This document shows, piece after piece, positions 29,749 through 47,322 of a stretch of 64,000 nt of DNA (the stretch's first letter is position 1; every line of letters begins with the position of its first letter). Origin of the DNA: a candidate division FCPU426 bacterium (GTDB lineage: Bacteria; Oederibacteriota; Muellerivitia; Muellerivitales; Muellerivitaceae); the NCBI GenBank assembly GCA_963847625.1, contig CAWKAR010000022.1:1-64000 (forward strand), read 5' to 3'. The notes under the pieces are model-generated. The model saw only the letters and a list, made by a program, of their open reading frames with translations. It was not told the DNA's origin and made no database searches. Position numbers and translations under genes: made by a program.

Positions 29749-29799
29749 CCTTCCACCCCCTACCCCAATTTAAATTTCAAAATTCTTAATCGTTGCCGT

Positions 29800-31808: not shown

Positions 31809-31921
31809 TGTGTTCCCCCTTCTATTCATCAAATGACTTGTCCACTTCCGGTTCCCAGCCTTGAAACTCGCTCATTCAACCATCTATGCGTCCTTAAACC
31901 CTTTTAAGGTCTGCCCAGTCT

Positions 31922-32893
31922 TTAACTCGTTTTTTGAGGATTCCCAAAAACGTCCCGGATCTCATCCCGGTCCCAGTCGCCCAAGGGCACGATCTCCGGC
32001 TCCAAGCGGACCAGGAATTTCTCGAAAACCCGCCTTTGAATTTCCCGCATCACGGCCACGACGTCATGGGCGGTCGCGTTTCCCTCGTTGTTGATGAAGT
32101 TGGCATGGATTTCGCTAACCCTCGCCCCACCCACTTGAAAGCTCTTTAAACCGGCGGTTTCGATCAACTTTCCCGCGGAATTTTTGTCGGGATTTTTAAA
32201 GACGCTTCCCGCGTTTTTCTCGGTCCGGGGCTGCTTTCCCCTGCGATTCCTGAAATACTCCTTTACTTTTTTCTCGATTTCCTCCGGGGGTTCCTTTTTC
32301 AACTTCAACACGGCTTCCACCAGGACGTTTCCACTGCCCTTGAGAGATGAGGTCCGGTAGCCATAGGCGTAATCCCCCTTTTCCAGCCGGCGGACTTCCC
32401 CCCTCGGGGTCACGACAGTGAGTTCCTGTACTAGGGGCCCGATCCAGGCTTTCTTGGCGCCTGCGTTTCCCACCACCGCACCTCCCAGGGTCCCCGGAAT
32501 TCCCGCGAAAAATTCAACGCCACCCAGGCCCGCTTCGCGGGTCTTCTCCAGCACGCTCACCAACCTTGTGCCGGCCTTAGCTCGCACCCGGTCGCCTTCG
32601 ATTCGAACACCCTGGAAATTCCGTCCCAGACGGATCACGGCACCGCGGTAGCCCTCATCCGCGAATAGCACGTTGCTTCCGCCGCCCAGCAATAAATAAG
32701 GAACTTGGGCGAGGGTCAGGCATCGCAAGAGAGTCTCGAGATCCTCAACCGACTGGGGCTCCACAAAAACCGCGGCCTTCCCCCCGATGTGGTAGGTGGT
32801 ATAGGGCGCAATGGATTGATCCATCTCCACCCGTCCCTTGATGAGATTTTGAAGTTCGCTAAAGTCCACGCCTTTCCTTTCCAGTACAAGCAT
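31922..32893 (-). CDS. murB: UDP-N-acetylenolpyruvoylglucosamine reductase (alternative GTG start 32869)
   Basis: Motifs GGGSNVL, GIPGTLGGA..NAGA, AGSVFKNP and HANF are present. Confidence 0.97.
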   Translation of the reverse strand: MLVLERKGVDFSELQNLIKGRVEMDQSIAPYTTYHIGGKAAVFVEPQSVEDLETLLRCLTLAQVPYLLLGGGSNVLFADEGYRGAVIRLGRNFQGVRIEGDRVRAKAGTRLVSVLEKTREAGLGGVEFFAGIPGTLGGAVVGNAGAKKAWIGPLVQELTVVTPRGEVRRLEKGDYAYGYRTSSLKGSGNVLVEAVLKLKKEPPEEIEKKVKEYFRNRRGKQPRTEKNAGSVFKNPDKNSAGKLIETAGLKSFQVGGARVSEIHANFINNEGNATAHDVVAVMREIQRRVFEKFLVRLEPEIVPLGDWDRDEIRDVFGNPQKTS

Positions 32894-32937
32894 TGTTTAC
32901 TTCCTTCTCACCGCCGACAGCGGCGGCCATCGTTTTC

Positions 32938-34344
32938 TTATCCTTTATGTTTCTGGATAAGGTCATTGCCGACTTTCCAGATATCCCCGGCGCCCATGGT
33001 CAAAAGAACGTATTTTTCAGTCAGGTGGTTCTTCAGGTAATCCAAAAGGCCCGGTCGGTCCTCCGCGTAAATGACATGGGGGTGGCCGTTCTCCCGCAGG
33101 GCTTCCACCAGGGTTTTACCCGTGACTCCTGCGATGGGTTTCTCGCGCGAGGGATAGATGGCCGTGATAATGACCTCATCCGCGTCCCCGAAGGCCTTAC
33201 CGAACTTGTCCCGAAGCAGCTGTGTCCGCGAGAAAAGGTGCGGTTGGAAGACCACCAGGACTTTTTTCGAGGGCCCGGCGAAATTCTTGGCCGCTTTCAG
33301 GGTTTCCGAAACGGCCGTCGGATGATGGGCGTAGTCATCCACGACCACGGCCCCCTTGAAGGAACCCTTGACCTCGAACCGGCGTTGGACGCCATGGAAT
33401 TTCGTCAACCCGCTCGCGATATTTTTAAAGGAAATCCTCAGTTCGAGCCCCACCGTGACTGCCGCGAGGGCATTCTTGACGTTAAACAGCCCCGGCACGT
33501 TGAGTTTGACCGTTCCCATTTTTTTCCCATGGACCACAGCCTCAAATGATGAACCGATTTTCTCCAGTCGGATCTTCCGGGCCGAAACCTGCGCCTTGGG
33601 TAAAATCCCATAAGTTGTCACCCGCCGTTGGATATGGGGAAGGATTTGCTGGACCTGTTTATCGTCGATTCCCAACACGACGCAGCCGTAAAAGGGGACC
33701 TTATTGGTGAATGTCACGAAGGCGTCCCGCACTTTTTCGATGGAGCCGTAGTAATCCAGGTGGTCATCGTCGATGTTGGTCACCACGGATATCATGGGAG
33801 AGAGCAGGAAAAATTCCCCGAAGGCCTCGCATGCTTCCGCGACCAAATAGGGGCTTTTCCCCAGTTTGGCATTGGATTTGAAAGCGTCCACCTGCCCCCC
33901 GATGACGAGGGTGGGGTCCAAACGGGCCTCGGTCATGACCAGCCCTACCATGGATGTAGTGGTGGTCTTGCCATGGGTGCCCGAAACGGCGATGCCGAAC
34001 TTCAAGCGCATAAGTTCCGCCAGCATCTCGGTGCGGGGGATGACGGGAATGGATCTCCTTCGGGCTTCCAGGATTTCCGGATTGTCCGGGGGAACTGCGG
34101 CCGAATAAACCACCACGTCCACGCCGGCCACGTTTCCGGCCTTGTGGCTGAAATGGATACGAGCCCCCATTTGGATAAGCCTTTGCGTTGTTTCGGAGGA
34201 TTTCAGATCTGAGCCGGTCACCTCGTATTTGAGGCTTAAAAGCACGGCGGCGATACCGCTCATGCCAGCGCCCCCGATGCCGATGAAATGCACCCGTTTC
34301 ACGGCCCCGAAAGGTTGGGTCAGGATTCCGAATGACGGTTTCAT
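32938..34344 (-). CDS. murC: UDP-N-acetylmuramate-L-alanine ligase
   Basis: Motifs GIGGAGMSG, GTHGKTTTT and DDYAHHP are present. Confidence 0.98.
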   Translation of the reverse strand: MKPSFGILTQPFGAVKRVHFIGIGGAGMSGIAAVLLSLKYEVTGSDLKSSETTQRLIQMGARIHFSHKAGNVAGVDVVVYSAAVPPDNPEILEARRRSIPVIPRTEMLAELMRLKFGIAVSGTHGKTTTTSMVGLVMTEARLDPTLVIGGQVDAFKSNAKLGKSPYLVAEACEAFGEFFLLSPMISVVTNIDDDHLDYYGSIEKVRDAFVTFTNKVPFYGCVVLGIDDKQVQQILPHIQRRVTTYGILPKAQVSARKIRLEKIGSSFEAVVHGKKMGTVKLNVPGLFNVKNALAAVTVGLELRISFKNIASGLTKFHGVQRRFEVKGSFKGAVVVDDYAHHPTAVSETLKAAKNFAGPSKKVLVVFQPHLFSRTQLLRDKFGKAFGDADEVIITAIYPSREKPIAGVTGKTLVEALRENGHPHVIYAEDRPGLLDYLKNHLTEKYVLLTMGAGDIWKVGNDLIQKHKG

Positions 34345-34415
34345 GATGGATTCCTCTTATTCATAAATGTCAACGCGGGTTCTTCCCCGTGTTTTTTCTT
34401 TAAATTGAGTTTCAT
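34341..34415 (-). CDS. 24-aa bridging ORF between murG and murC (MKLNLKKKHGEEPALTFMNKRNPS)
   Basis: ATGA overlap with the murG stop and ATGA overlap with the murC start. Confidence 0.5.
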   Translation of the reverse strand: MKLNLKKKHGEEPALTFMNKRNPS

Positions 34416-35530
34416 TTCTTTTCCGCCATTTCAAAGATTTCCCCGGCGATCTGACGGGCCGCTTCGGGTTTGGCTAGTAAGGCTGCCGCCTGTCCCATAG
34501 ATTTCAGCTTTTCCTCATCCGAGAGAAGGGAGATCAGGGTCCGGCTGAGCATTTCCTCTCCCAACTCCCTTTCCAAAATCACGACGGCCGCCCCCGCCGC
34601 CTCAAGGGCCCTGGCATTCTTCTCCTGGTGCCCGGAAGCGTGAGGATAGGGTATAAAGAGAACGGGCAGGCCTCGGCTGACCACTTCCGCGCAGGTCAAG
34701 GCCCCTGAACGGGCTACCACCAGATCCGCCACTGCGTAGGCCTCCTGGATGTTCCCGAAAAACGGCCGGACGACCATCCGAACCGGGCACTTTTCCAACT
34801 GGTCCACGGTTCTGCGGTAGTCGGCCGTTCCGGTCATCATGAGGACCTGGAACCGGTGACCCCCTTCGCCCAGGAAAAGGATGGCCTCGGCCATGATTTG
34901 GTTCAACATCCGGGCTCCCTGGCTTCCACCCAGCATCAGGATGTTTTTGACACCGGGAAAAAGTTTGAAGTTCTCGAGGGCCTTGGACCTCTCCGCCGCC
35001 CGGATTTCCTCCCTGACCGGAATTCCCGTCCATTGGGCCCTCCCCTTGGAAAAATGTCGAACCGTCTCTTCAAAACCCGCGAATATCTTCTTGGAAAACC
35101 TGCTGGAGAACCTTGCTCCCAAACCCGGAATGACGTTGGGTTCCAGCAATCCCACCGGGATGCCCTTCCAGGCCGCGGCCAGCGAAACAGGAACCGACAC
35201 GTACCCCCCCGTCGAGAAAACCGCGTCCGGCTTGAAGGAAGCCACCAATTCCCGGGCTTGTTTGAGTCCGGAAAAAAAGTCGTATCCGAAGGTGAAATAC
35301 TTCCAGGACGGTCGGCGGGGGAACCCGCTGGCCGGAATACCTTCGAATAGAAGCCCCGCCTCGGGTACCCATTTTTCCTCGGGTCCGTTTTTTTTACCCA
35401 CGTAAAGCACGACTACCTCCGGTTGTTTCATTAATTCTCTCGCCACTGCGATGCCGGGGAATACGTGTCCCCCCGTTCCACCGCCCGTGATGATGAATCG
35501 TTTAATCAAAATCGCCCGCCGTGAAAACAT
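34412..35530 (-). CDS. murG: Lipid II GlcNAc transferase MurG (probable TTG start 35509)
   Basis: Motifs TGGGTGGH, GGSQGA and HQEKNA are present. Confidence 0.97.
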   Translation of the reverse strand: MFSRRAILIKRFIITGGGTGGHVFPGIAVARELMKQPEVVVLYVGKKNGPEEKWVPEAGLLFEGIPASGFPRRPSWKYFTFGYDFFSGLKQARELVASFKPDAVFSTGGYVSVPVSLAAAWKGIPVGLLEPNVIPGLGARFSSRFSKKIFAGFEETVRHFSKGRAQWTGIPVREEIRAAERSKALENFKLFPGVKNILMLGGSQGARMLNQIMAEAILFLGEGGHRFQVLMMTGTADYRRTVDQLEKCPVRMVVRPFFGNIQEAYAVADLVVARSGALTCAEVVSRGLPVLFIPYPHASGHQEKNARALEAAGAAVVILERELGEEMLSRTLISLLSDEEKLKSMGQAAALLAKPEAARQIAGEIFEMAEKK

Positions 35531-35594
35531 ATTGAAAGGAACATATATCTCGAATGCAGCGTTGCTTTTTGCTTCCCTTTGAAAACAGTCTCAT
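35502..35594 (-). CDS. 30-aa bridging ORF between ftsW and murG (MRLFSKGSKKQRCIRDICSFQYVFTAGDFD)
   Basis: SD GGGGAGG and ATGA overlap with the ftsW stop. Its stop overlaps the murG TTG (TTGATTAA). Confidence 0.5.
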   Translation of the reverse strand: MRLFSKGSKKQRCIRDICSFQYVFTAGDFD

Positions 35595-36745
35595 CGGACG
35601 GCCTCCCCTGCTTGGCTTAAGGGTATTGGCAGTCTGGTTTCCCGGGAGATGTTGAGCAGGAATCCGATTGAAATCAGCGTAAAAACCATGGAAGAACCCC
35701 CATAGGATATGAGCGGAAGGGGAATTCCCTTGGTGGGAAGCAATCCCGTCACCACTCCCAAATTCACGAGGGCTTGGAACCCGATCAGCCCGGTGATGCC
35801 CGCCGCCATCATTCCTGGGAAAAAGCCGCCTTCCCTCCGGCTGACGGCCCGGGAGACTTTGAACCCCCTCAAGATGAAGAGGGCGAAAAGAAACACGAGG
35901 GCCCCGGCTCCCACCAGGCCCAATTCCTCCGCGATGATGGCGAATATGAAGTCCGTATGCGGCGCCGGGAGATAGAAAAGTTTCTGGGAACTGTTGGAGA
36001 GTCCCACGCCCAGGGGGCCGCCGTTGCCCACTGCGATCAGGCTTTGGATCAGCTGGAACCCCGCACCCTGAGGGTCGTCCCCGGGATGCAGAAAGGATAG
36101 GATACGGACCACCCGATAATGGACGGATTCCACCAGGAACACGAAAACCGGGACAAAGACAAAGAGAGGGATCAGGAAAAACTTCCATTCCATCCCAGCT
36201 AAAAACAGTGAAAGGATGGTGACCAGAGCCAGGAGTACCGCCGTCCCAAAGTCATGTTGCTTTTCCAAGAGCAACATGCAGATTCCCAGCAGGACCAAAT
36301 AGGGCATGAGCCCGGAAAAACTCCCCAAGGTCTGCCGGCGCCGGTCCAGGGAATCGGCTAGGTAAAAAACGAGAGCAATTTTCAGGATTTCAGAAGGTTG
36401 GAAAGAAAAGAACCCCAGCCGGAACCATCTTTGGGCCCCGCCGACCGTTCTCCCGATCCCGGGAACACAAACCAGGGCCATCAGGATCAAGGCCACGATT
36501 AGTCCCGGAATGGCCAAGGCCCTGAGTTCCTCCAAGTCAACCTTCGAGGCGAAGAAAAGGCCCAGGCTCCCCAGCGCCACCCAGAGGAGCTGGCGGAGGA
36601 AAAAATAGTAGGAATTTCCGAAACGATCGTGGGCCAGGATGGCCGAGGCGCTATAAACCATGATCAGCCCGGCTGTGACCAGAACGAGCGTTAAAAGAAA
36701 CAAGAAAAAATCAGGCGAGGCTTGTTTTTTGACATTAAAACTCAT
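35591..36745 (-). CDS. ftsW: SEDS peptidoglycan polymerase FtsW (alternative start 36808)
   Basis: Motifs FQPSE, LPAPHTDFIF and PTKGIPLPLISYGGSS are present. Confidence 0.97.
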   Translation of the reverse strand: MSFNVKKQASPDFFLFLLTLVLVTAGLIMVYSASAILAHDRFGNSYYFFLRQLLWVALGSLGLFFASKVDLEELRALAIPGLIVALILMALVCVPGIGRTVGGAQRWFRLGFFSFQPSEILKIALVFYLADSLDRRRQTLGSFSGLMPYLVLLGICMLLLEKQHDFGTAVLLALVTILSLFLAGMEWKFFLIPLFVFVPVFVFLVESVHYRVVRILSFLHPGDDPQGAGFQLIQSLIAVGNGGPLGVGLSNSSQKLFYLPAPHTDFIFAIIAEELGLVGAGALVFLFALFILRGFKVSRAVSRREGGFFPGMMAAGITGLIGFQALVNLGVVTGLLPTKGIPLPLISYGGSSMVFTLISIGFLLNISRETRLPIPLSQAGEAVR

Positions 36746-37037
36746 GAACTTCTCCAAAACATATTTTTTTACCCCGGTCTTCGTGATAAATCCCGGTTTT
36801 GGTTTCATCCTTCCGTTCGGATTCCGAGCGAAGTGTCGTAGACGTTGGAAGAGTGTCGGAAGTGTTGTTGTCAGAATCCGAACGCAGGGATGGAACCTCC
36901 TTTCCGGTTGTCACAACTCGAAGGACCGCCTTTTCCAATCGGAATACCACCAGCATCTCCGGCAGCTGGAGGCTTTCCAATTTGATGGCGGTGTTGTTGC
37001 GCTTCGTCCCACTCGGCTCCAACGGGTTGAAAAGCAT
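36735..37037 (-). CDS. 100-aa hypothetical ORF bridging murD and ftsW
   Basis: TGATG overlap with the murD stop. Its stop overlaps the ftsW ATG by 11 nt. Confidence 0.5.
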   Translation of the reverse strand: MLFNPLEPSGTKRNNTAIKLESLQLPEMLVVFRLEKAVLRVVTTGKEVPSLRSDSDNNTSDTLPTSTTLRSESERKDETKTGIYHEDRGKKICFGEVHEF

Positions 37038-38473
37038 CAGTTGTTCCCCCCTCTGGCGTCCGGCGGCTGAAGCCCCTCGTTTTTTTTCTGGCCCGCTTTC
37101 ATTTCAGCCAGCTTTTTCACCACGGCCTTGAACTTCCGGCCCCGGTCCTCGTAATTTTCGAACATATCATAGCTGGCGCAACCGGGTGAAAAGAGTACTA
37201 CCCCCCCTTTCCCGCAGGACGCGAAGGCCCCTTGGACCGTCTCTTCCAAGCCGCCTGCCTCCACCACCGTCGCAGCGTTTGACAATTGCTGAACCACCTT
37301 GCGTTTGCACTCCCCGAAGGCCACTACTCGCGTGACTTTCTCCTGGACCAAGGGGGCTAGACGGGTGAAATCCCCCGCCTTATCCCGGCCGCCGAGGATC
37401 AGCACGATGGGCGCCTTGAAGCTCTGCAGGGCCTTCACCACCGAATCGACGTTGGTTCCCTTGGAGTCGTTGACGAACATAACCCCTTCGACTTCCCCCG
37501 CCGGTTCCAGGCGGTGCTCGACTCCGGGGAATTCCGCCAGGGTCGAAGCGATGGCACCGTCAGGCACACCGCAGAGGGAGGCGGTCAGCGCCGCGGCACA
37601 GGCGTTTTCCAAATTGTGGGGACCGGGGATCTTCAATTCGGAAGTATGGATAAGGTGTCGTCCTAGAAGTTCGATCCGGTCCCCAACAACGTAACATCCG
37701 GGTTTCCCGGTATTACAGGCATTCTCAATAAAGCCGAACAAGTAAAGCCGGCTCTTCACCAGGCTGCTGTAGATGGGTGTGTACTTGTCGGATAGGTTCA
37801 AGAGAGCTGCATCCTCGGGTTTTTGGTTCGCGAAAATCCGACCCTTGGTTTCCACGTAGGCCTGCATCCCGGGATGCCGGTCCAGGTGGTCCGGCGTCAC
37901 GTTGAGAATGGAGGCCACCTGGGGTCGGAATTCTCGCATGGTCTCCAGCTGGAAACTCGAGACTTCCAGGACCGCCCAATCGTTGGCGGAAAGTTCGAAA
38001 ACCGCCTCCGCGAAAGCCTTGCCGATGTTGCCGCAGGCCACCGCTCCCTTTCCGGCGTTCTTGATCATGGCGGCAGTCAGAGTCGTAGTCGTGGTCTTGC
38101 CGTTTGTGCCGGTAATGGCCGCCATGGGCGCTGGACAGTAACCGAATGCCAGCTCCATTTCCCCGATCACGGGAATTCCTTTTTCACGGGCTCTTTCTAG
38201 GGCCGGATGGCAGTAGGGCACCCCCGGGGAGGTCACCACCAGATCCGAGTTAGTCACCGAGACCGGGTCGATTCCTCCCAGCATGAGCTTGGCGTGGGTA
38301 AGACCCATGGCCTTGTCCATCCAGGCTGTGAGTTTCTCGGGAGTTTTGTCGTCCAGGATAACGACCCGGGCTCCGTGCACGGTTAAGAGCCGCGCCGCAG
38401 CGTAACCCGACCTTCCCAATCCGATGACCGTCACTTGTTTTCCATGAACGTAGTACAAGTTGTTCTGCTCCAA
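37037..38473 (-). CDS. murD: UDP-MurNAc-L-Ala-D-Glu ligase
   Basis: Motifs GLGRSG, ITGTNGKTTT, NDSKGTN and FSPGCASYD are present. Confidence 0.98.
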   Translation of the reverse strand: MEQNNLYYVHGKQVTVIGLGRSGYAAARLLTVHGARVVILDDKTPEKLTAWMDKAMGLTHAKLMLGGIDPVSVTNSDLVVTSPGVPYCHPALERAREKGIPVIGEMELAFGYCPAPMAAITGTNGKTTTTTLTAAMIKNAGKGAVACGNIGKAFAEAVFELSANDWAVLEVSSFQLETMREFRPQVASILNVTPDHLDRHPGMQAYVETKGRIFANQKPEDAALLNLSDKYTPIYSSLVKSRLYLFGFIENACNTGKPGCYVVGDRIELLGRHLIHTSELKIPGPHNLENACAAALTASLCGVPDGAIASTLAEFPGVEHRLEPAGEVEGVMFVNDSKGTNVDSVVKALQSFKAPIVLILGGRDKAGDFTRLAPLVQEKVTRVVAFGECKRKVVQQLSNAATVVEAGGLEETVQGAFASCGKGGVVLFSPGCASYDMFENYEDRGRKFKAVVKKLAEMKAGQKKNEGLQPPDARGGNN

Positions 38474-38508
38474 TCCTTTTTTTATCGCGTCCTAGTGGAC
38501 GCTTTTAC

Positions 38509-39597
38509 TTAACGCAGTTTCAGCGTGCTCAAGGTTAGTAAGGTCAGGATGATGGCGACGATCCAGAACCTGACGATCAGCTTGGACTCGGGTATGCCGG
38601 ACAACTCGAAATGATGGTGCAGCGGAGCCATCTTAAACACCCTTTTCCCGCTCACCTTGAAGGAGGTCACTTGGATGATGACCGACAGGGCCTCCGCCAC
38701 GAAAATACCTCCTACGATGATCAGGAGAATCTCCTGTTTCACCATGACCGCAATCGTTCCCAGCAGGCCTCCCAGAGCCAGGGAGCCAGTGTCCCCCATG
38801 AAAACCTGGGCCGGATGGGCGTTAAACCAGAGGAACCCGAGGCCTGCTCCCGCCAGTGCCGCGCAGACCACGGTAAGCTCGCCGGCGCCGGGCACCATGA
38901 TGATCTTGAGGTATTCGCTGAACTTAATGTTCCCGGAAACGTAGGTGATGACCACAAAGGCCATGGCCGCGAAAATCGTGCAACCTACGGCGAGACCGTC
39001 CAAACCGTCGGTCAGGTTTACCGCGTTGGAGGCGCTCACGATCACCAAAACCGCGAAAAAGGGATAAACAACGTCCAGGTTCAGGGGGTGTTTGAAAAAC
39101 GGCAGGGTGATGGATGTCTTCAGGTGGAAATCGTCCGGGAGGACTGAAAGGTAGAAAAATACGATGATCATGGCCCCACAGGCCTGGAATATCAGTTTCC
39201 ACAAGCCGGGAATGCCCCGGCTTTTCCCGATGCCCTTGAGTTTCAGGAGATCGTCAACGATTCCCAACATCCCGTACCAGATAAGGGAGAAGACACACAG
39301 CCAGAAAAGTTTGGAATCCCACCGCACCCATAAAAGGATGCTCAAGAGGAGGGTCAGGAGGATCAGAATTCCACCCATCGTGGGGGTGCCAGCCTTGGAG
39401 GAATGGGCTGCTGGGCCATCGGAGCGGATTTTCTCGCCCAATTGGGCAGCTCGGATCCTGGCGATAACTGCGCTTCCGAAGAGAAGGCACAGTCCGAAAG
39501 ACGTTACCGCCGCGTACACGCTCCGGAAAGTGACGTAACGGAAAACATTGAATCCGATGAATTTTCCAGCCAACGGATAGAGTAGGTGGTATAACAC
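38509..39597 (-). CDS. mraY: Phospho-MurNAc-pentapeptide transferase
   Basis: Motifs KAGTPTMGG, NLTDGLDGL, FMGDTGS and MAPLHHH are present. Confidence 0.98.
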   Translation of the reverse strand: MLYHLLYPLAGKFIGFNVFRYVTFRSVYAAVTSFGLCLLFGSAVIARIRAAQLGEKIRSDGPAAHSSKAGTPTMGGILILLTLLLSILLWVRWDSKLFWLCVFSLIWYGMLGIVDDLLKLKGIGKSRGIPGLWKLIFQACGAMIIVFFYLSVLPDDFHLKTSITLPFFKHPLNLDVVYPFFAVLVIVSASNAVNLTDGLDGLAVGCTIFAAMAFVVITYVSGNIKFSEYLKIIMVPGAGELTVVCAALAGAGLGFLWFNAHPAQVFMGDTGSLALGGLLGTIAVMVKQEILLIIVGGIFVAEALSVIIQVTSFKVSGKRVFKMAPLHHHFELSGIPESKLIVRFWIVAIILTLLTLSTLKLR

Positions 39598-39623
39598 TTT
39601 TTCTCCTTAATTCCGGCCTTCGA

Positions 39624-40970
39624 TCAGAATGCCTTCAATACTTTTTCCAATCTCATGGCCCGCGATCCCTTCAATAAAACCGCGTCGCCTTTTTCGGCGA
39701 TTTCCGCTAAAAATTTCCCGGCTCGATCCGCTTGATCGAAGCAATGAATGACTCCCCCGGAGACCCCTGGCAAACCCCGTATAGCTTCCTGGAAGGCTTT
39801 TCCAACCAAAAGAAGGCAGTTTGGCTGCAAATCCAGGGCCCTTTGGAGGACCTGTTCATGAGCTTTCTTGGTAAATTCCCCCATTTCCAGCATGTCCCCT
39901 AATACTGCGATTTTGCGCCTGACGCCCTGAAGACTCCGGAAAGTATCCAATGCCGCCTCCATGGAGGTAGGCGAGGCGTTGTAGGCATCGTTGACGAAAA
40001 GAATGCCCTGCCGGTTTAGGATTTCCATGCGCATGGGAGCGCGGGGAATAAAGCTTCCCAACCTTTGCGCGAGGGCTTTTAGGGGCAAACCCAGGGCCAA
40101 TCCGGCCGCGACCGCAGCCAGGGCGTTTTTCACGTTATGCTCCCCCGGCATGGAAAGACGGACGGGAATTTCCGCGCCTTGCGCCTCCAGCAGGAAGCGG
40201 GTCTTCCACCCATCCACCTGGAGGTCCTTGGCTCTCACTTGTCCCACCTTGATCCCGAATGTGAACACATCGTCTCCTTTGCGGCCCAACAACGGGTCCT
40301 CTGCGTTTAAAACCACTTTTCTACCGGCCCGGAAGGCCGTTCCGATTTTTAATTTTTCCAATGCCAGATGCCTTTTGTCCCGGAAAAATCCCAAGTGGGC
40401 TTCCCCGATCGCCGTTACTACCGCCACGTCGGGCCTGGCTGTTTCGGACAACCGCTCCATTTCGCCCGGGTGGTTGATGCCCAGTTCCACCACTGCCGCC
40501 TCATGCCCCGGTTCCAAGCTCAACAAGGTCAAGGGAAGACCCCATTGGTTGTTCAAATTTCCCTCGGTCTTCAAGACTCTGAACTTCCCGGCCAACAAAT
40601 GGGCCGTCATGTCCTTGACCGTCGTTTTACCCACGCTCCCCGTGACCGCTACCACCGGCCCGTCCCACTGCAGCCGTTGGGCCCTTCCAAGTGCTCCCAG
40701 AGCTTGGGTGGTGTCCTTCACCCGGATGACGGGTACTCCAATCCCAGATACAGACTTGGAAACCACCGCCGCCCTCGCGCCCTTCACCGCCGCCGCCCTC
40801 AGGTAACGGTGACCATCCAGCTGATTTCCGATGATGGCGATGAACAAATCCCCTTTCCGGATTTTCCTGCTGTCGTGGCAAACACCCGTCACTTGGATTT
40901 TTCCATTTCCCGCCGTCAACCGCCCGTTCACGAGCGCTGTCGCTTCCCGCAGGGTCCATGGCAGCATCAA
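39624..40970 (-). CDS. murF: UDP-MurNAc-tripeptide-D-Ala-D-Ala ligase
   Basis: Motifs TGSVGKTT, GNLNN, NDAYNASP and LLKGSR are present. Confidence 0.97.
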   Translation of the reverse strand: MMLPWTLREATALVNGRLTAGNGKIQVTGVCHDSRKIRKGDLFIAIIGNQLDGHRYLRAAAVKGARAAVVSKSVSGIGVPVIRVKDTTQALGALGRAQRLQWDGPVVAVTGSVGKTTVKDMTAHLLAGKFRVLKTEGNLNNQWGLPLTLLSLEPGHEAAVVELGINHPGEMERLSETARPDVAVVTAIGEAHLGFFRDKRHLALEKLKIGTAFRAGRKVVLNAEDPLLGRKGDDVFTFGIKVGQVRAKDLQVDGWKTRFLLEAQGAEIPVRLSMPGEHNVKNALAAVAAGLALGLPLKALAQRLGSFIPRAPMRMEILNRQGILFVNDAYNASPTSMEAALDTFRSLQGVRRKIAVLGDMLEMGEFTKKAHEQVLQRALDLQPNCLLLVGKAFQEAIRGLPGVSGGVIHCFDQADRAGKFLAEIAEKGDAVLLKGSRAMRLEKVLKAF

Positions 40971-41044
40971 TTGCTCGGACAGCCGACAGATGACAGTCGG
41001 CAGCTACCGCCTCCCTCCCCGATCTGTATAGTTGCAGGGTTCAT
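40967..41044 (-). CDS. 25-aa bridging ORF between murE and murF (MNPATIQIGEGGGSCRLSSVGCPSN)
   Basis: SD GGAGGG and ATGA overlap with the murE stop. TGATG overlap with the murF ATG at 40967. Confidence 0.5.
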   Translation of the reverse strand: MNPATIQIGEGGGSCRLSSVGCPSN

Positions 41045-42515
41045 TGCTTAAGTCCCTCCAGCGCCAGTAGGACTTCCTTCCGATCGTCGAAAGGGCGTTT
41101 TTCATCGCCTATGATCTGGTATGTCTCATGCCCTTTGCCCGCGATCAAGACCAAGTCTCCTTTTTTAGCAATGGAAAGCGCTAGGCGGATGGCCGTCCCT
41201 CTTTCCTCTTCCACCCAAACCCGGCGGTGCCCGTTCTTGGAGAGCGGGGAGGGGATACCCTTGAGAATCTCGTTCAGGATGGCCTGGGCATTCTCCGTCC
41301 TGGGGTTGTCGGAAGTTAATACGGTCAAATCGGCTATCTGGGCCGAGATTCTTCCCATGATCGGCCGCTTGGTCCTGTCCCGGTCGCCTCCGCAGCCGAA
41401 TACCGAGATGACGCGGTGCCCTTTTTTAGGGTTCAAAATCCCCCGGGCCGCTATCAAGGCTTGTTTCAAGGCGTCCGGGGTATGGGCGTAATCCACCAAG
41501 ACCGTGAAATCCTGCCCCGCCGAGATTTCCTCGAAGCGTCCCGGGACGACCGGAGCCCGCATCAGGCCTTCCTGGATGGCTTCCCAGGAAAAACCCAGTT
41601 CCTTCGTCACCGAAAGGGCCGCAAGGCAATTGTAGACGTTGAAAATTCCAGTCAGGGGAACCTCGAATTTTTTTCCCCCACCCGGAAGGAAACACGGCCC
41701 GGAAGGGTCTTTACTTTTTCAGCGCGGTAGGTGCATTTGGAGCGGATACCGTAGCCAGCTGCCTTAGACTTCAATTCCTTCAACAGCCTTCGGCCGTAGG
41801 AGTCGTCGGCGTTAGCAACGCGGGCCTTGAGGCTTTTAAACTCGGTGAAGAGACGGCGTTTGGCCTGAAAATAGTTGGAAAAATTCTTGTGAAAATCCAA
41901 ATGGTCCCGCCCCAGGTTGGTAAAGACGGCCCCCTGGAATTCGACGCCTAAAACGCGCTTCATTTCCAGGGCGTGGGAGGAAACTTCCATGACGGCCCAC
42001 CCGCACTTTTGAAGCCTCATTTCATTCAATAATTCCACCACCGCTAAAGCCGAGGGGGTGGTGTTGGGGGCGACGTAGGTCTTGTTTCCGACCTGGTAGC
42101 TGATGGTGCCAATCAATCCGGCATCCTGTCCCGCAGCTTTCAGGATTGCGCGTAGGAGATAAGTCGTCGTCGTCTTGCCTTTGGTTCCGGTGACGCCAAC
42201 CACCCTCACGCGTCGGGAGGGATTCCCGAAAAAAGCGTGCGCCAGGCGGGCCAGGGCTTCCCGGCTATCCGGTACTGTCGCCTGTGGGACAGGAATGTTT
42301 TCCAAGGGTTTCCCTTCCGTCACTAGCGCACAAGCCCCAGCCTGGACGGCCTCACTTGCGAATTTCCGTCCATCCAACTTGGCACCCGGCACACAGACGA
42401 ATAGGTCGCCCGGATTGGTTTTTTTGGAATTCTCGGAAAGGCCCGTCACTTCGGGATTACCCTTTCCGATGGTTTTCACATGTTCCAATTTCCTCAGGAG
42501 GCTTTGGAATTTCAT
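41041..42515 (-). CDS. murE: UDP-MurNAc-dipeptide-mDAP ligase, split by a 1-nt frameshift at 41668-41679
   Basis: The N part has VTGTKGKTTT and MEVSSH. The C part has DYAHTPD, DNPR (mDAP-type) and AGKGHE. Adding one base in the G5/A7 run restores ..KKFEVPLTGIFNVYN. Confidence 0.93.
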
Positions 42516-45090: not shown

Positions 45091-46085
45091 GAGGCCGTCT
45101 CCACTCGCAATTTTTCCGCAACCCTCAGTTTGGCGCTACGAGCCCTCGGGTTTTGCGCTAGTTCCGCTTCCGAGGCCATGACTGGTTTTTTAGTCAGGAT
45201 CCGCAGGTTCGCCTTGTGCCCACAGACGCATTGGGGCAGATCGGGCGGGCAAAGGCAGTCGGTGCTTTCGGTCTTGAAGAATTCCTTGACAATCCGGTCT
45301 TCAAGGGAATGGAAGGTAATGACGGCGATCCGCCCGCTTTGAGCGAGAACCTTCAGGGCGGCCTGGAGCCCCTGGGAAAGAGCTTCCAGTTCCTTGTTCA
45401 CTTCGATTCGGAGGGCTTGGAAAAGACGCGTAGCGGGATGGTGTCGAAGTTTCCTCCCTTTTTTAAAGGTTTTCCCGCAAACACGTTTGGCCAATTGGGC
45501 GAGTTCAAGAGTCGTTTCGAAACCCTTTTGGTTACGGGCCTGTACGATGGCGCGGGCCAGGGCGCGGGCCTTGGGTTCCTCTCCGTATTCATAGATGATT
45601 TTGGAAAGCTTTCCTTCGGGATAGTTGTTGACGATCCAGGCGGCTGTGCGGCCGGCGGCCTGGTCCATACGCATGTCCAGCGGGCCGTCCTGAAGGAAGG
45701 AAAAACCGCGTTCGGCGGCGTCAAGTTGTAAGGAGGAAACCCCTATATCCATCAACACGCTGTTAACCTCGCTGATTGAAAGGTCTTTCAGCACCCACAG
45801 GAGGTCGGCGAAGTTAGCCTTGAAAAGAGAGACCCTTGGGTCTTTCTTGAGTGCTAGGCCAGCGTGTTGTAGGGCATCGACATCCTGGTCAATCCCAACC
45901 AAGCGGCCCTTTGGCAGGTGTTTCAAAAGCTCCTGCGAATGACCGCCCATCCCGACCGTCAAATCCAAGACCACCCCGTCGGGAGGGGGCGACAGCCATT
46001 CCACCGCCTCTTTTATAAGAACTGGTTGGTGGACGTTTTCAGGGTTCAAAGCGGGCGAGGGCTTCTTCCTCGCTCGATACCACAT
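45087..46085 (-). CDS. rsmH: 16S rRNA C1402 methyltransferase
   Basis: Motifs HQPVL, GVSSLQLD...RGFSF, FQALRIEVN and NPRARSAKLR are present. Confidence 0.98.
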   Translation of the reverse strand: MWYRARKKPSPALNPENVHQPVLIKEAVEWLSPPPDGVVLDLTVGMGGHSQELLKHLPKGRLVGIDQDVDALQHAGLALKKDPRVSLFKANFADLLWVLKDLSISEVNSVLMDIGVSSLQLDAAERGFSFLQDGPLDMRMDQAAGRTAAWIVNNYPEGKLSKIIYEYGEEPKARALARAIVQARNQKGFETTLELAQLAKRVCGKTFKKGRKLRHHPATRLFQALRIEVNKELEALSQGLQAALKVLAQSGRIAVITFHSLEDRIVKEFFKTESTDCLCPPDLPQCVCGHKANLRILTKKPVMASEAELAQNPRARSAKLRVAEKLRVETAS

Positions 46086-46377
46086 CGAAGTAGGAAAAAG
46101 CTCCCACGAGCTTGAATAGGTTCACCACGTAAGGGATCAAGCCGGCCAGCTTGATCTCCCCTCCTATGGATCTGAACCTCATATTTTTTTCGGACAAAAG
46201 AGATATCCCGTCCAGGGAGACGTGGGAGACATTCTTGAAATTCAAAACAACCTTGTTCTGGTTTTTCAACACCATGTCGGTAAGCAAGTTCAAGACCGAT
46301 TCCATGTCCCTTTTTCTGATATAGCCGGATAAGCGGATGACGGAGGCGGTTTCGGTCGGAGTCAGTGTGGCGTTCAT
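46039..46377 (-). CDS. STAS domain protein
   Basis: STAS pattern VVLNFKNVSHVS..GI..L and GGEIKLAGL. Confidence 0.82.
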   Translation of the reverse strand: MNATLTPTETASVIRLSGYIRKRDMESVLNLLTDMVLKNQNKVVLNFKNVSHVSLDGISLLSEKNMRFRSIGGEIKLAGLIPYVVNLFKLVGAFSYFDVVSSEEEALARFEP

Positions 46378-46742
46378 CAGTCCTCCTGTGCCGGCGCGTA
46401 AACCGGCATACGTCCAGTTTTCACCATCATTTCTTTGACGTCTAAATAAATTTCAAACGCCTTTTCGACTCCCATGGACCGGAATAAGTGCATGAGGCGA
46501 CTGGAAAGGCCTACGATTTTCAGGTCTCCTTTCCGGAATCGTATCTGGCCCCAATGGTTCAACAAGGCCCCCAAAACATTGGCGTTCATGAAAGAAACCC
46601 GGCTCAAGTCCAAAACCATGTGCCGGTAGCCTTTTTTGATCATGTTATCCATGGCTTCCCCGAGTTCCTGGATATCTAATTCACTTAGGTCCCCTTCAAG
46701 GGTAATCAGCGAAAATTTTTCTTTTATTTCAATGCCCACCAT
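46377..46742 (-). CDS. STAS domain protein
   Basis: STAS pattern LEGDL, VLDLSRVSFMN...LGAL and GDLKIVGL. Confidence 0.85.
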   Translation of the reverse strand: MVGIEIKEKFSLITLEGDLSELDIQELGEAMDNMIKKGYRHMVLDLSRVSFMNANVLGALLNHWGQIRFRKGDLKIVGLSSRLMHLFRSMGVEKAFEIYLDVKEMMVKTGRMPVYAPAQED

Positions 46743-47230: not shown

Positions 47231-47260
47231 ACCGTAAAAAATAAAGGTTTTTCGGGGCCT

Positions 47261-47322
47261 CCCACTTTATCCCACCGCTCCCCATTTCGCGCCATTATTA
47301 GGGTAAACAATGACCTAGTCAA
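47261..47322 (-). promoter_or_regulatory. dcw promoter (TTGACT-N17-AATAAT) with MraZ boxes
   Basis: TGG(G/C) repeats at a 10-nt period (47261, 47271, 47281, 47291) directly downstream of the -10 element. Confidence 0.8.

Follow-up and report, generated by a model that had tools for sequence, protein, structure and literature searches.

The window analysed here, a 64,000-nucleotide stretch of DNA from an uncultured bacterial lineage (52% GC; its genome is referred to as G000), carries a complete division and cell wall (dcw) cluster on its minus strand, running from mraZ to ftsZ and continuing to pgeF. Four spacers of this cluster, murE-murF, murD-ftsW, ftsW-murG and murG-murC, are each spanned by a small open reading frame (ORF) that overlaps both the stop codon of the gene upstream and the downstream gene's start codon. 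Comparison of these spacers with those of related genomes leads us to think it likely that small insertions, arriving repeatedly at dcw junctions that formerly overlapped and filtered by selection for translational coupling, left the bridge ORFs behind as scars. What has been kept at these sites is probably the frame that joins stop to start, by which ribosomes would be handed on to the next gene.

Bridge ORFs in the dcw cluster of the window

A first-pass annotation of the window had proposed that micro-ORFs fill the dcw spacers. The six that it listed all exist on the minus strand, as do all features described in this section, and translate as it described; the genes flanking them are confirmed as the named dcw genes. 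Overlap at both ends is as it had been written for four of them. Between the C-terminal part of murE (41041..41610) and murF (39624..40967, with a weak Shine-Dalgarno (SD) sequence of -2.2 kcal/mol), a 25-aa ORF (40967..41044) is entered by ATGA, the TGA of murE overlapping its ATG, and left by TGATG; the direct repeat AGCAAT (6 bp) stands at either end of this spacer. The TGA of murD (37037..38473, start uncertain by a few codons) likewise overlaps the ATG of a 100-aa ORF (36735..37037) that is entered by TGATG and ends with an 11-nt overlap on ftsW (35591..36745, starting at ATG 36745 with GGAG). A 30-aa ORF (35502..35594; ATGA in, TTGATTAA out) joins ftsW to murG (34412..35509), whose probable start, TTG 35509, is aligned to an ATG in the same-genus genome G001, ATG 35530 being the alternative. 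Finally, a 24-aa ORF (34341..34415) with ATGA both in and out lies between murG and murC (32938..34344), in a spacer with the direct repeat ATGAAAC (7 bp) at either end. Two of the bridges, those of 100 aa and 30 aa, are preceded by good SDs, and the starts of the genes downstream of all four bridges match the homologous starts in relatives.

We count an ORF as a strict bridge if it begins 1-11 nt before the upstream stop is complete and reaches 1-11 nt into the homologous start of the next gene. By this definition four of the nine spacers of at least 30 nt in the window's cluster are bridged, so that the claim of filled spacers holds for these four and fails for the cluster as a whole. The two weaker cases that had been put forward are among those that fall away. 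The 23-aa ORF between murC and murB (32859..32930) starts 7 nt after the murC stop and ends 35 nt inside murB, has a shuffle p of about 0.4 under loose rules, and has its ATG replaced by ACG in G001. The 17-aa ORF between murB and ddl (31822..31875) begins 46 nt past the stop of murB and terminates 13 nt short of the ATG of ddl (31808), which has its own SD; it overlaps neither codon and is no bridge.

Bridging across related genomes

The comparison covered 21 related clusters, comprising the window, 19 of 24 family relatives and one same-order genome; five family relatives (G007, G008, G014, G015 and G017) were left out as their ftsW loci are missing or fragmentary. A quick-method tree of 20 of the 21 genomes served solely to name sister genomes. 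Several of the junctions that are spaced in the window overlap directly in relatives: at murE-murF there is an overlap in 8 genomes and a spacer in 9 (n = 17), and at murG-murC an overlap in 10 and a spacer in 11. The ftsI-murE junction overlaps in 12 genomes and is spaced in 4. G001 is without a spacer at both murE-murF and murG-murC, and there the 3' end of the window's murG-murC bridge corresponds to the in-frame tail of murG. We refer to the six dcw junctions with direct stop/start overlap in at least three genomes as overlap junctions, a class that was chosen post hoc with the data already seen.

Two null models were used, same-length shuffles (300 runs) and shuffles in which the phase was also randomised. 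Taken singly, each short bridge of the window is weak (same-length p = 0.44 for murE-murF, 0.38 for ftsW-murG and 0.42 for murG-murC; random-phase p = 0.12, 0.25 and 0.13), and the long murD-ftsW bridge gives p = 0.06 and 0.05. Pooled over the family, the shuffle check supports bridging: at the six overlap junctions 23 of 42 spacers are strictly bridged, where shuffling at constant length leads one to expect 8.5 (at most 15 in any of the 300 runs) and shuffling with the phase randomised 3.8 (at most 10). The excess persists when the window is removed (20/39 versus 7.2 or 3.2) and when murF-mraY, which overlaps in two genomes, and murC-murB, which overlaps in one, are added (23/64 versus 8.8 and 4.2). 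At murD-ftsW a strict bridge occurs in 7 of 19 genomes where 0.9 are expected, rising to 9 under loose rules. The six other dcw junctions, by contrast, are bridged in 5 of 85 cases (3.2 or 2.1 expected), and ftsA-ftsZ in none of 17 genomes.

The reading frames themselves show a further contrast. In inserts of at least 55 nt at overlap junctions, to which this control was limited, the frame entered by the overlapping start is open in 26 of 30 cases, while the other sense frames of the same inserts are open in 22 of 72 and the antisense frames in 31 of 102; entry frames at the other junctions are open in 6 of 33. Fisher tests of the entry-frame contrasts give p = 2e-7 and 4e-8, both made optimistic by kinship among the genomes. 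These frames are kept open across inserts that differ from genome to genome: pairs of spacers with a local score of at least 40 number zero at five overlap junctions and one at murG-murC, as opposed to 169 of 171 pairs at murD-ftsW. Since spacers at one junction are unrelated between genomes, the insertions are mostly independent. The relay of ribosomes that the first-pass annotation proposed gains support from the entry frames being open far more often than control frames; its extension to a design of the whole 23-kb operon does not, given the spacers that G001 lacks and the unbridged ftsA-ftsZ junction.

More elaborate arrangements also occur. In G013 a chain of two ORFs crosses ftsI-murE, and its murG-murC junction holds a 268-aa gene that is entered by ATGA and ends 2 nt before the murC start. 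As an out-of-family control we took murG-murC junctions from MurC matches in named genomes, one family member being among the matches listed. The 66 junctions from other phyla among these matches yielded 17 spacers, of which 3 are bridged, all by long inserted genes; none of the 11 spacers shorter than 320 nt among them is bridged. We note separately that six Ignavibacteria/Bacteroidetes records (L217, L218, L223, L227, L240 and L253) carry a membrane-protein-like gene of about 150 aa between murG and murC, coupled at both ends in three of the six.

Origin of the inserts

Many of the relatives' spacers form strong hairpins (z-scores of -3 to -12) whose arms consist of tandem 7-9-mers. Inverted arms of this kind frame 29 of 30 GxxExxY genes (TIGR04256, PF13366) and 22 of the 25 scored four-helix-bundle genes (TIGR02436; 30 fetched); filled and empty forms of these cassettes have their inverted arms in common. 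Long spacers match the flanks of GxxExxY or four-helix-bundle genes in 22 of 34 cases at overlap junctions and 36 of 76 at others, and most dcw inserts of the relatives are empty cassette forms. The cassettes are candidate mobile elements, comparable to REP/REPIN-RAYT systems.

Among the window's spacers a recognisable arm survives at murE-murF alone, as a 25-nt remnant (40979..41003, minus strand) identical at 22 of 25 positions to each arm of a four-helix-bundle cassette of G016 (L161); the match scores 35, the shuffle maximum being 23. No clear cassette-arm match was found for the window's murD-ftsW, ftsW-murG and murG-murC spacers, and none of its three short bridged spacers forms a strong two-arm hairpin (z = 0.2 for murE-murF, -0.9 for ftsW-murG and -2.8 for murG-murC). 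The ftsW-murG and murG-murC inserts may have decayed. A family of repeats within G000 was considered as the source and rejected: BLASTN of ten spacers returned short matches only (at most 35 nt) and no full second copy.

A scan of G000 for arm motifs found two elements. G000 has just one GxxExxY gene (contig C49, 65123-65800; L145), whose left arm is doubled and whose right arm is single. It also has a four-helix-bundle cassette in an operon (contig C25, 179400-180000; L171); a frame entered at an ATGA overlap runs through the right arm of this cassette, which there forms an N-terminal extension of the next gene, presumably pdxA by its motif. In G013 (L048) a genome-specific palindromic repeat occurs in five dcw spacers, twice in tandem (ftsL-ftsI, ftsI-murE, murF-mraY, murD-ftsW and ftsW-murG).

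A model of insertion and selection for coupling

The starting point would be junctions of the kind that overlap directly in many relatives and carry unrelated inserts in others. Most inserts would be gene-less arms of GxxExxY or four-helix-bundle cassettes placed just behind stop codons, as seen in relatives and at the window's murE-murF; the same may hold for its ftsW-murG and murG-murC. The old overlapping start would remain beneath the upstream stop, and a short duplication or a later mutation would give the new stop/start overlap at the far end. The pooled counts show that the joining frame is then kept stop-free and in phase while the peptide drifts. By the established route of termination-reinitiation, a ribosome that terminates on the upstream gene would reinitiate on the bridge, melt the hairpin and cover the mRNA, and would finally reinitiate on the next mur or fts gene. 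What is gained by this may be stoichiometry, the melting of hairpins or shelter from Rho, a rho gene being present in the genome. An insertion at an overlap would otherwise part the downstream gene from its supply of ribosomes by a hairpin, and it is the open, in-phase variants that would survive. Inserts would later decay or be deleted, and a bridge may fuse to the upstream gene, as in the case of murG in G001. We stress that translational coupling at the bridges is predicted from the geometry of their overlaps.

The murD-ftsW hairpin and a possible regulatory leader

The murD-ftsW bridge differs from the other three in containing a conserved hairpin (36801..36897, minus strand; z = -4.1). 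This element is single-copy and family-specific, is present in 19 of 19 family loci aligned, always upstream of ftsW, and consists of a stem of about 25 bp and a C/A-rich, G-poor loop of 45-50 nt in which four AC(A/G)C words stand about 10 nt apart. By pattern search it was located as one copy in each of 25 of the 30 other genomes of the family and in none of the 68 genomes outside it; a covariance model gave a single locus in G000, in G001 and in G004 and no locus in two genomes from outside. In the stem 93.5% of the cells hold a pair, and both partners differ in 12 of the 25 pairs (0 of 500 shuffles); the many U-G pairs indicate the mRNA strand. The length of the loop varies and shifts the reading frame; the constraint is therefore on the nucleic acid and not on a peptide. 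Rfam gave no match in the window's locus, and nine loci searched at E <= 1 gave four matches, all below gathering scores. The hairpin is thus a candidate cis-regulatory RNA for the synthesis of FtsW and MurG that is not in Rfam. The idea that the loop holds MraZ sites was rejected, its words being unlike the TGGG repeats upstream of mraZ.

It is possible, if doubtful, that the murD-ftsW bridge is a regulatory leader and the other three are plain scars, with translation across the hairpin and its C-rich loop controlling ftsW-murG-murC through Rho attenuation, RNase III cleavage or protein binding. The single-copy distribution of the hairpin, its covariation and U-G pairs, its C-rich and G-poor loop and the presence of a rho gene in the genome all fit this idea, and we infer that the hairpin could act as a Rho, RNase III or protein-binding signal for these genes. 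Against it, no promoter or terminator-like site was listed on the sense strand of the bridged spacers, murD-ftsW included, and that spacer is bridged in a minority of genomes (strictly in the 7 of 19 given above, loosely in 9); the hairpin is therefore conserved independently of the bridge. The leader and the insertion scars can hold together. In a bolder combination, for which we would claim rather less, the dcw operon would act as a sieve that turns unrelated selfish hairpin inserts into obligatory ribosome relays, remade at the same junctions, with the murD-ftsW relay wired to a family-wide structured RNA such that translation of a disposable ORF gates ftsW-murG-murC. If true, this would amount to a new control point of cell-wall synthesis and to a general route by which parasitic DNA can persist in essential operons.

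By-product, microprotein and artefact explanations

Another idea is that relay-like ORFs arise mechanically and do nothing. An insertion would duplicate an ATGA or GTGA overlap, a 4-bp duplication giving the entry start and the exit stop for free, and stop-poor palindromic arms would be open by composition. The direct repeats of 6 bp (AGCAAT) and 7 bp (ATGAAAC) in the window and a 15-bp junction duplication in G023 are what this idea expects, and about 30% of antisense frames in inserts are open. Between G000 and G001 an 86-codon frame survives their divergence with a chance probability of 0.15; frame retention in the 100-aa ORF is therefore weak evidence alone. The prediction that bridged genes would have weak SDs was rejected: no difference in SD strength is seen between the 35 bridged and the 111 unbridged genes (p = 0.70).

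This lack of a difference in SDs is one of several results that weigh against selection for coupling as we propose it, as does the post hoc choice of junction classes. At the overlap junctions 19 of 42 spacers are without a strict bridge and 11 without even a loose one; most junction duplications are of 3-5 bp and no more frequent than chance; and the window's ftsW-murG and murG-murC spacers match no arm clearly (scores of 28 and 23; shuffle maxima 25 and 26). Outside the dcw cluster the signal fades. Arm elements there are bridged in 1 of 20 cases (15 of the 20 from G004), as compared with 8 strict and 18 loose bridges among 30 inside it. Over 1.18 Mb of sequence from six relatives, the ten comparable non-dcw overlap junctions include 2 loose bridges and no strict one, so that a general rule at overlap junctions had to be given up. 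Of 31 spacers in the ribosomal-protein cluster just one has a strict bridge, that of adk-map, a junction that overlaps in 11 genomes. A genome-wide relay design is weak at best, with 27/247 versus 54/769 in G000 (p = 0.058) by a home-made, crude gene caller covering 70% of the genome. From these counts the coupling filter is clear in the dcw cluster and unproven elsewhere, being weak or absent outside it.

Even so, we regard a by-product free of selection as improbable. The very same inserts have 26 of 30 entry frames open and 22 of 72 other sense frames, and at the other junctions 6 of 33 entry frames are open. Moreover, arms of the same kind outside the dcw cluster are rarely bridged (the 1 of 20 above), which means that the element itself does not bring the frame with it. 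Selection for coupling thus remains our preferred explanation of the open frames.

That the bridges are hidden microproteins, here of cell division or cell-wall synthesis, was one of the readings offered in the first-pass annotation, and we now consider it very unlikely. The good SDs of the 100-aa and 30-aa ORFs, the retention of the 100-aa frame in G001 with unchanged length and overlaps, a motif-like stretch over the hairpin that recurs in eight genomes, and the occurrence of conserved small ORFs at other dcw junctions of the family could be read in its favour. The 100-aa ORF, however, evolves neutrally as judged by substitution ratios, with a nonsynonymous to synonymous rate ratio (dN/dS) of about 1.3-1.5 between G000 and G001 where seven flanking dcw genes have 0.05-0.15, and the reading frame of the hairpin arm changes with loop length. 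At any one junction the bridge peptides of different genomes show no relationship save where the DNA is common, and even over the partly homologous DNA at ftsW-murG the bridge of G001 (27 aa, ATGA out) uses a frame other than that of G000. Two of the spacers are missing from G001 altogether, and the idea is largely refuted for three ORFs. Pfam and NCBIfam gave no match for any of the five peptides tested, the 17-aa ORF being too short to scan. Neither purifying selection on the peptide nor same-locus homologs, which would mark a conserved microprotein, are apparent from these comparisons.

Least probable of all is an assembly artefact in which homopolymer indels cut off N-terminal extensions of the downstream genes as ORFs of their own. 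The idea is invited by the frame breaks in murE, fusA and tuf and by a murG frame open back to the ftsW stop. It is contradicted by in-frame stops that precede the ATG of murC by 15 nt and that of murF by 39 nt, by bridges in G001 at murD-ftsW and ftsW-murG, and by 20 strict overlap-junction bridges in other assemblies. The N-terminal part of murE (41652-42515, minus strand) is cut off from the C-terminal part at a G/A homopolymer run near 41670, the ORF being unbroken in the 16 relatives with coverage of the locus; this break and those in fusA and tuf are probably sequencing indels in an indel-prone assembly. Independent short-read contigs from other runs match most of the murD-ftsW spacer gap-free (36738-37023 and 36622-36832), and the three short bridges (34341-34415, 35502-35594 and 40967-41044) lie outside the short-read contig pieces listed. 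Indel errors do not explain the bridges.

Relation to known systems

A close parallel is found in the mycobacterial interspersed repetitive units (MIRU). Two papers describe these as short inserts in operons with an ORF that overlaps the adjacent genes, coupling being proposed to limit the damage of insertion, and as a single repeat family, present in 40-50 copies and bearing tetranucleotide direct repeats, that carries its own ORF (PMC12548453, PMC3184786). Like MIRU, the bridge ORFs overlap adjacent operon genes, most bridged inserts are of similar size (60-200 nt), and filled and empty sites coexist in relatives (9 and 8 at murE-murF, 11 and 10 at murG-murC). Unlike MIRU, the window's spacers have no further copies in the genome, the inserts are of many unrelated types, and arms outside the dcw cluster are mostly without a bridge; it looks as if the site imposes the ORF. 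A second parallel is offered by the short ORFs of integron attC and attI1 sites (ORF-11 and ORF-17): as described in PMC8876359, they are free of peptide function, and the ribosome reinitiates, melts a stem-loop and reaches the next gene. The bridges would likewise relay ribosomes through a disposable ORF across an inserted stem-loop, as their overlap geometry suggests, although here the hosts are essential housekeeping genes. No integrase was seen among the genes identified across the dcw cluster, nor were attC core sites or a cassette array seen there, no search aimed at integrases having been made.

Coupling by termination-reinitiation at -4 and -1 overlaps, including delivery by upstream ORFs and bicistronic design, is likewise treated in PMC12548453. 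The same geometry stands at both ends of each bridge; what differs is that two such events would occur in series through a disposable ORF, an arrangement that has arisen many times independently at the same junctions. PMC1480536 treats operon spacing, and its accessible part mentions no such bridging ORFs. We found no description of dcw bridging ORFs or of GxxExxY arms in a literature search that left subscription journals mostly outside and excluded supplements.

The family thus offers a natural experiment of about 20 independent insertions, in which selection may act on an open frame without peptide function so as to keep stop and start coupled within an essential operon. How much coupling is worth to the dcw cluster becomes testable, and the tolerance of small selfish cassettes inside operons would be explained. 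It also carries a warning, as surveys of small ORFs would count such relays as microproteins.

Other observations in the cluster

Two families of conserved small ORFs lie at other dcw junctions of the relatives, neither of them in the window. In ftsQ-ftsA spacers a basic ORF of 40-51 aa with the motif KVCF(G/S)xCRCF occurs in 10 of the 15 spaced relatives listed (L032, L033, L034, L036, L037, L038, L040, L041, L047 and L048), and its conservation makes it a real candidate for a dcw microprotein. At murF-mraY an ORF of 54-64 aa with LKxFLDxLAGxDHPFxKG occurs in 5 of 10 spaced relatives (L034, L036, L038, L047 and L048). The window's own ftsQ-ftsA spacer (29749-29799) is unbridged and precedes an ftsA with a very strong SD; it contains the word AATTTTGAAATTTAAATT, which recurs about ten times elsewhere in the genome and resembles a four-helix-bundle arm.

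At the other end of the cluster, two tandem STAS/anti-sigma-factor-antagonist genes lie between mraZ and rsmH (46039-46742); they are conserved in the family and not there in the out-of-family genome G025. Upstream of mraZ (47240-47290) are three TGGG words at a spacing of about 10 nt, which resemble the motif of MraZ binding sites.

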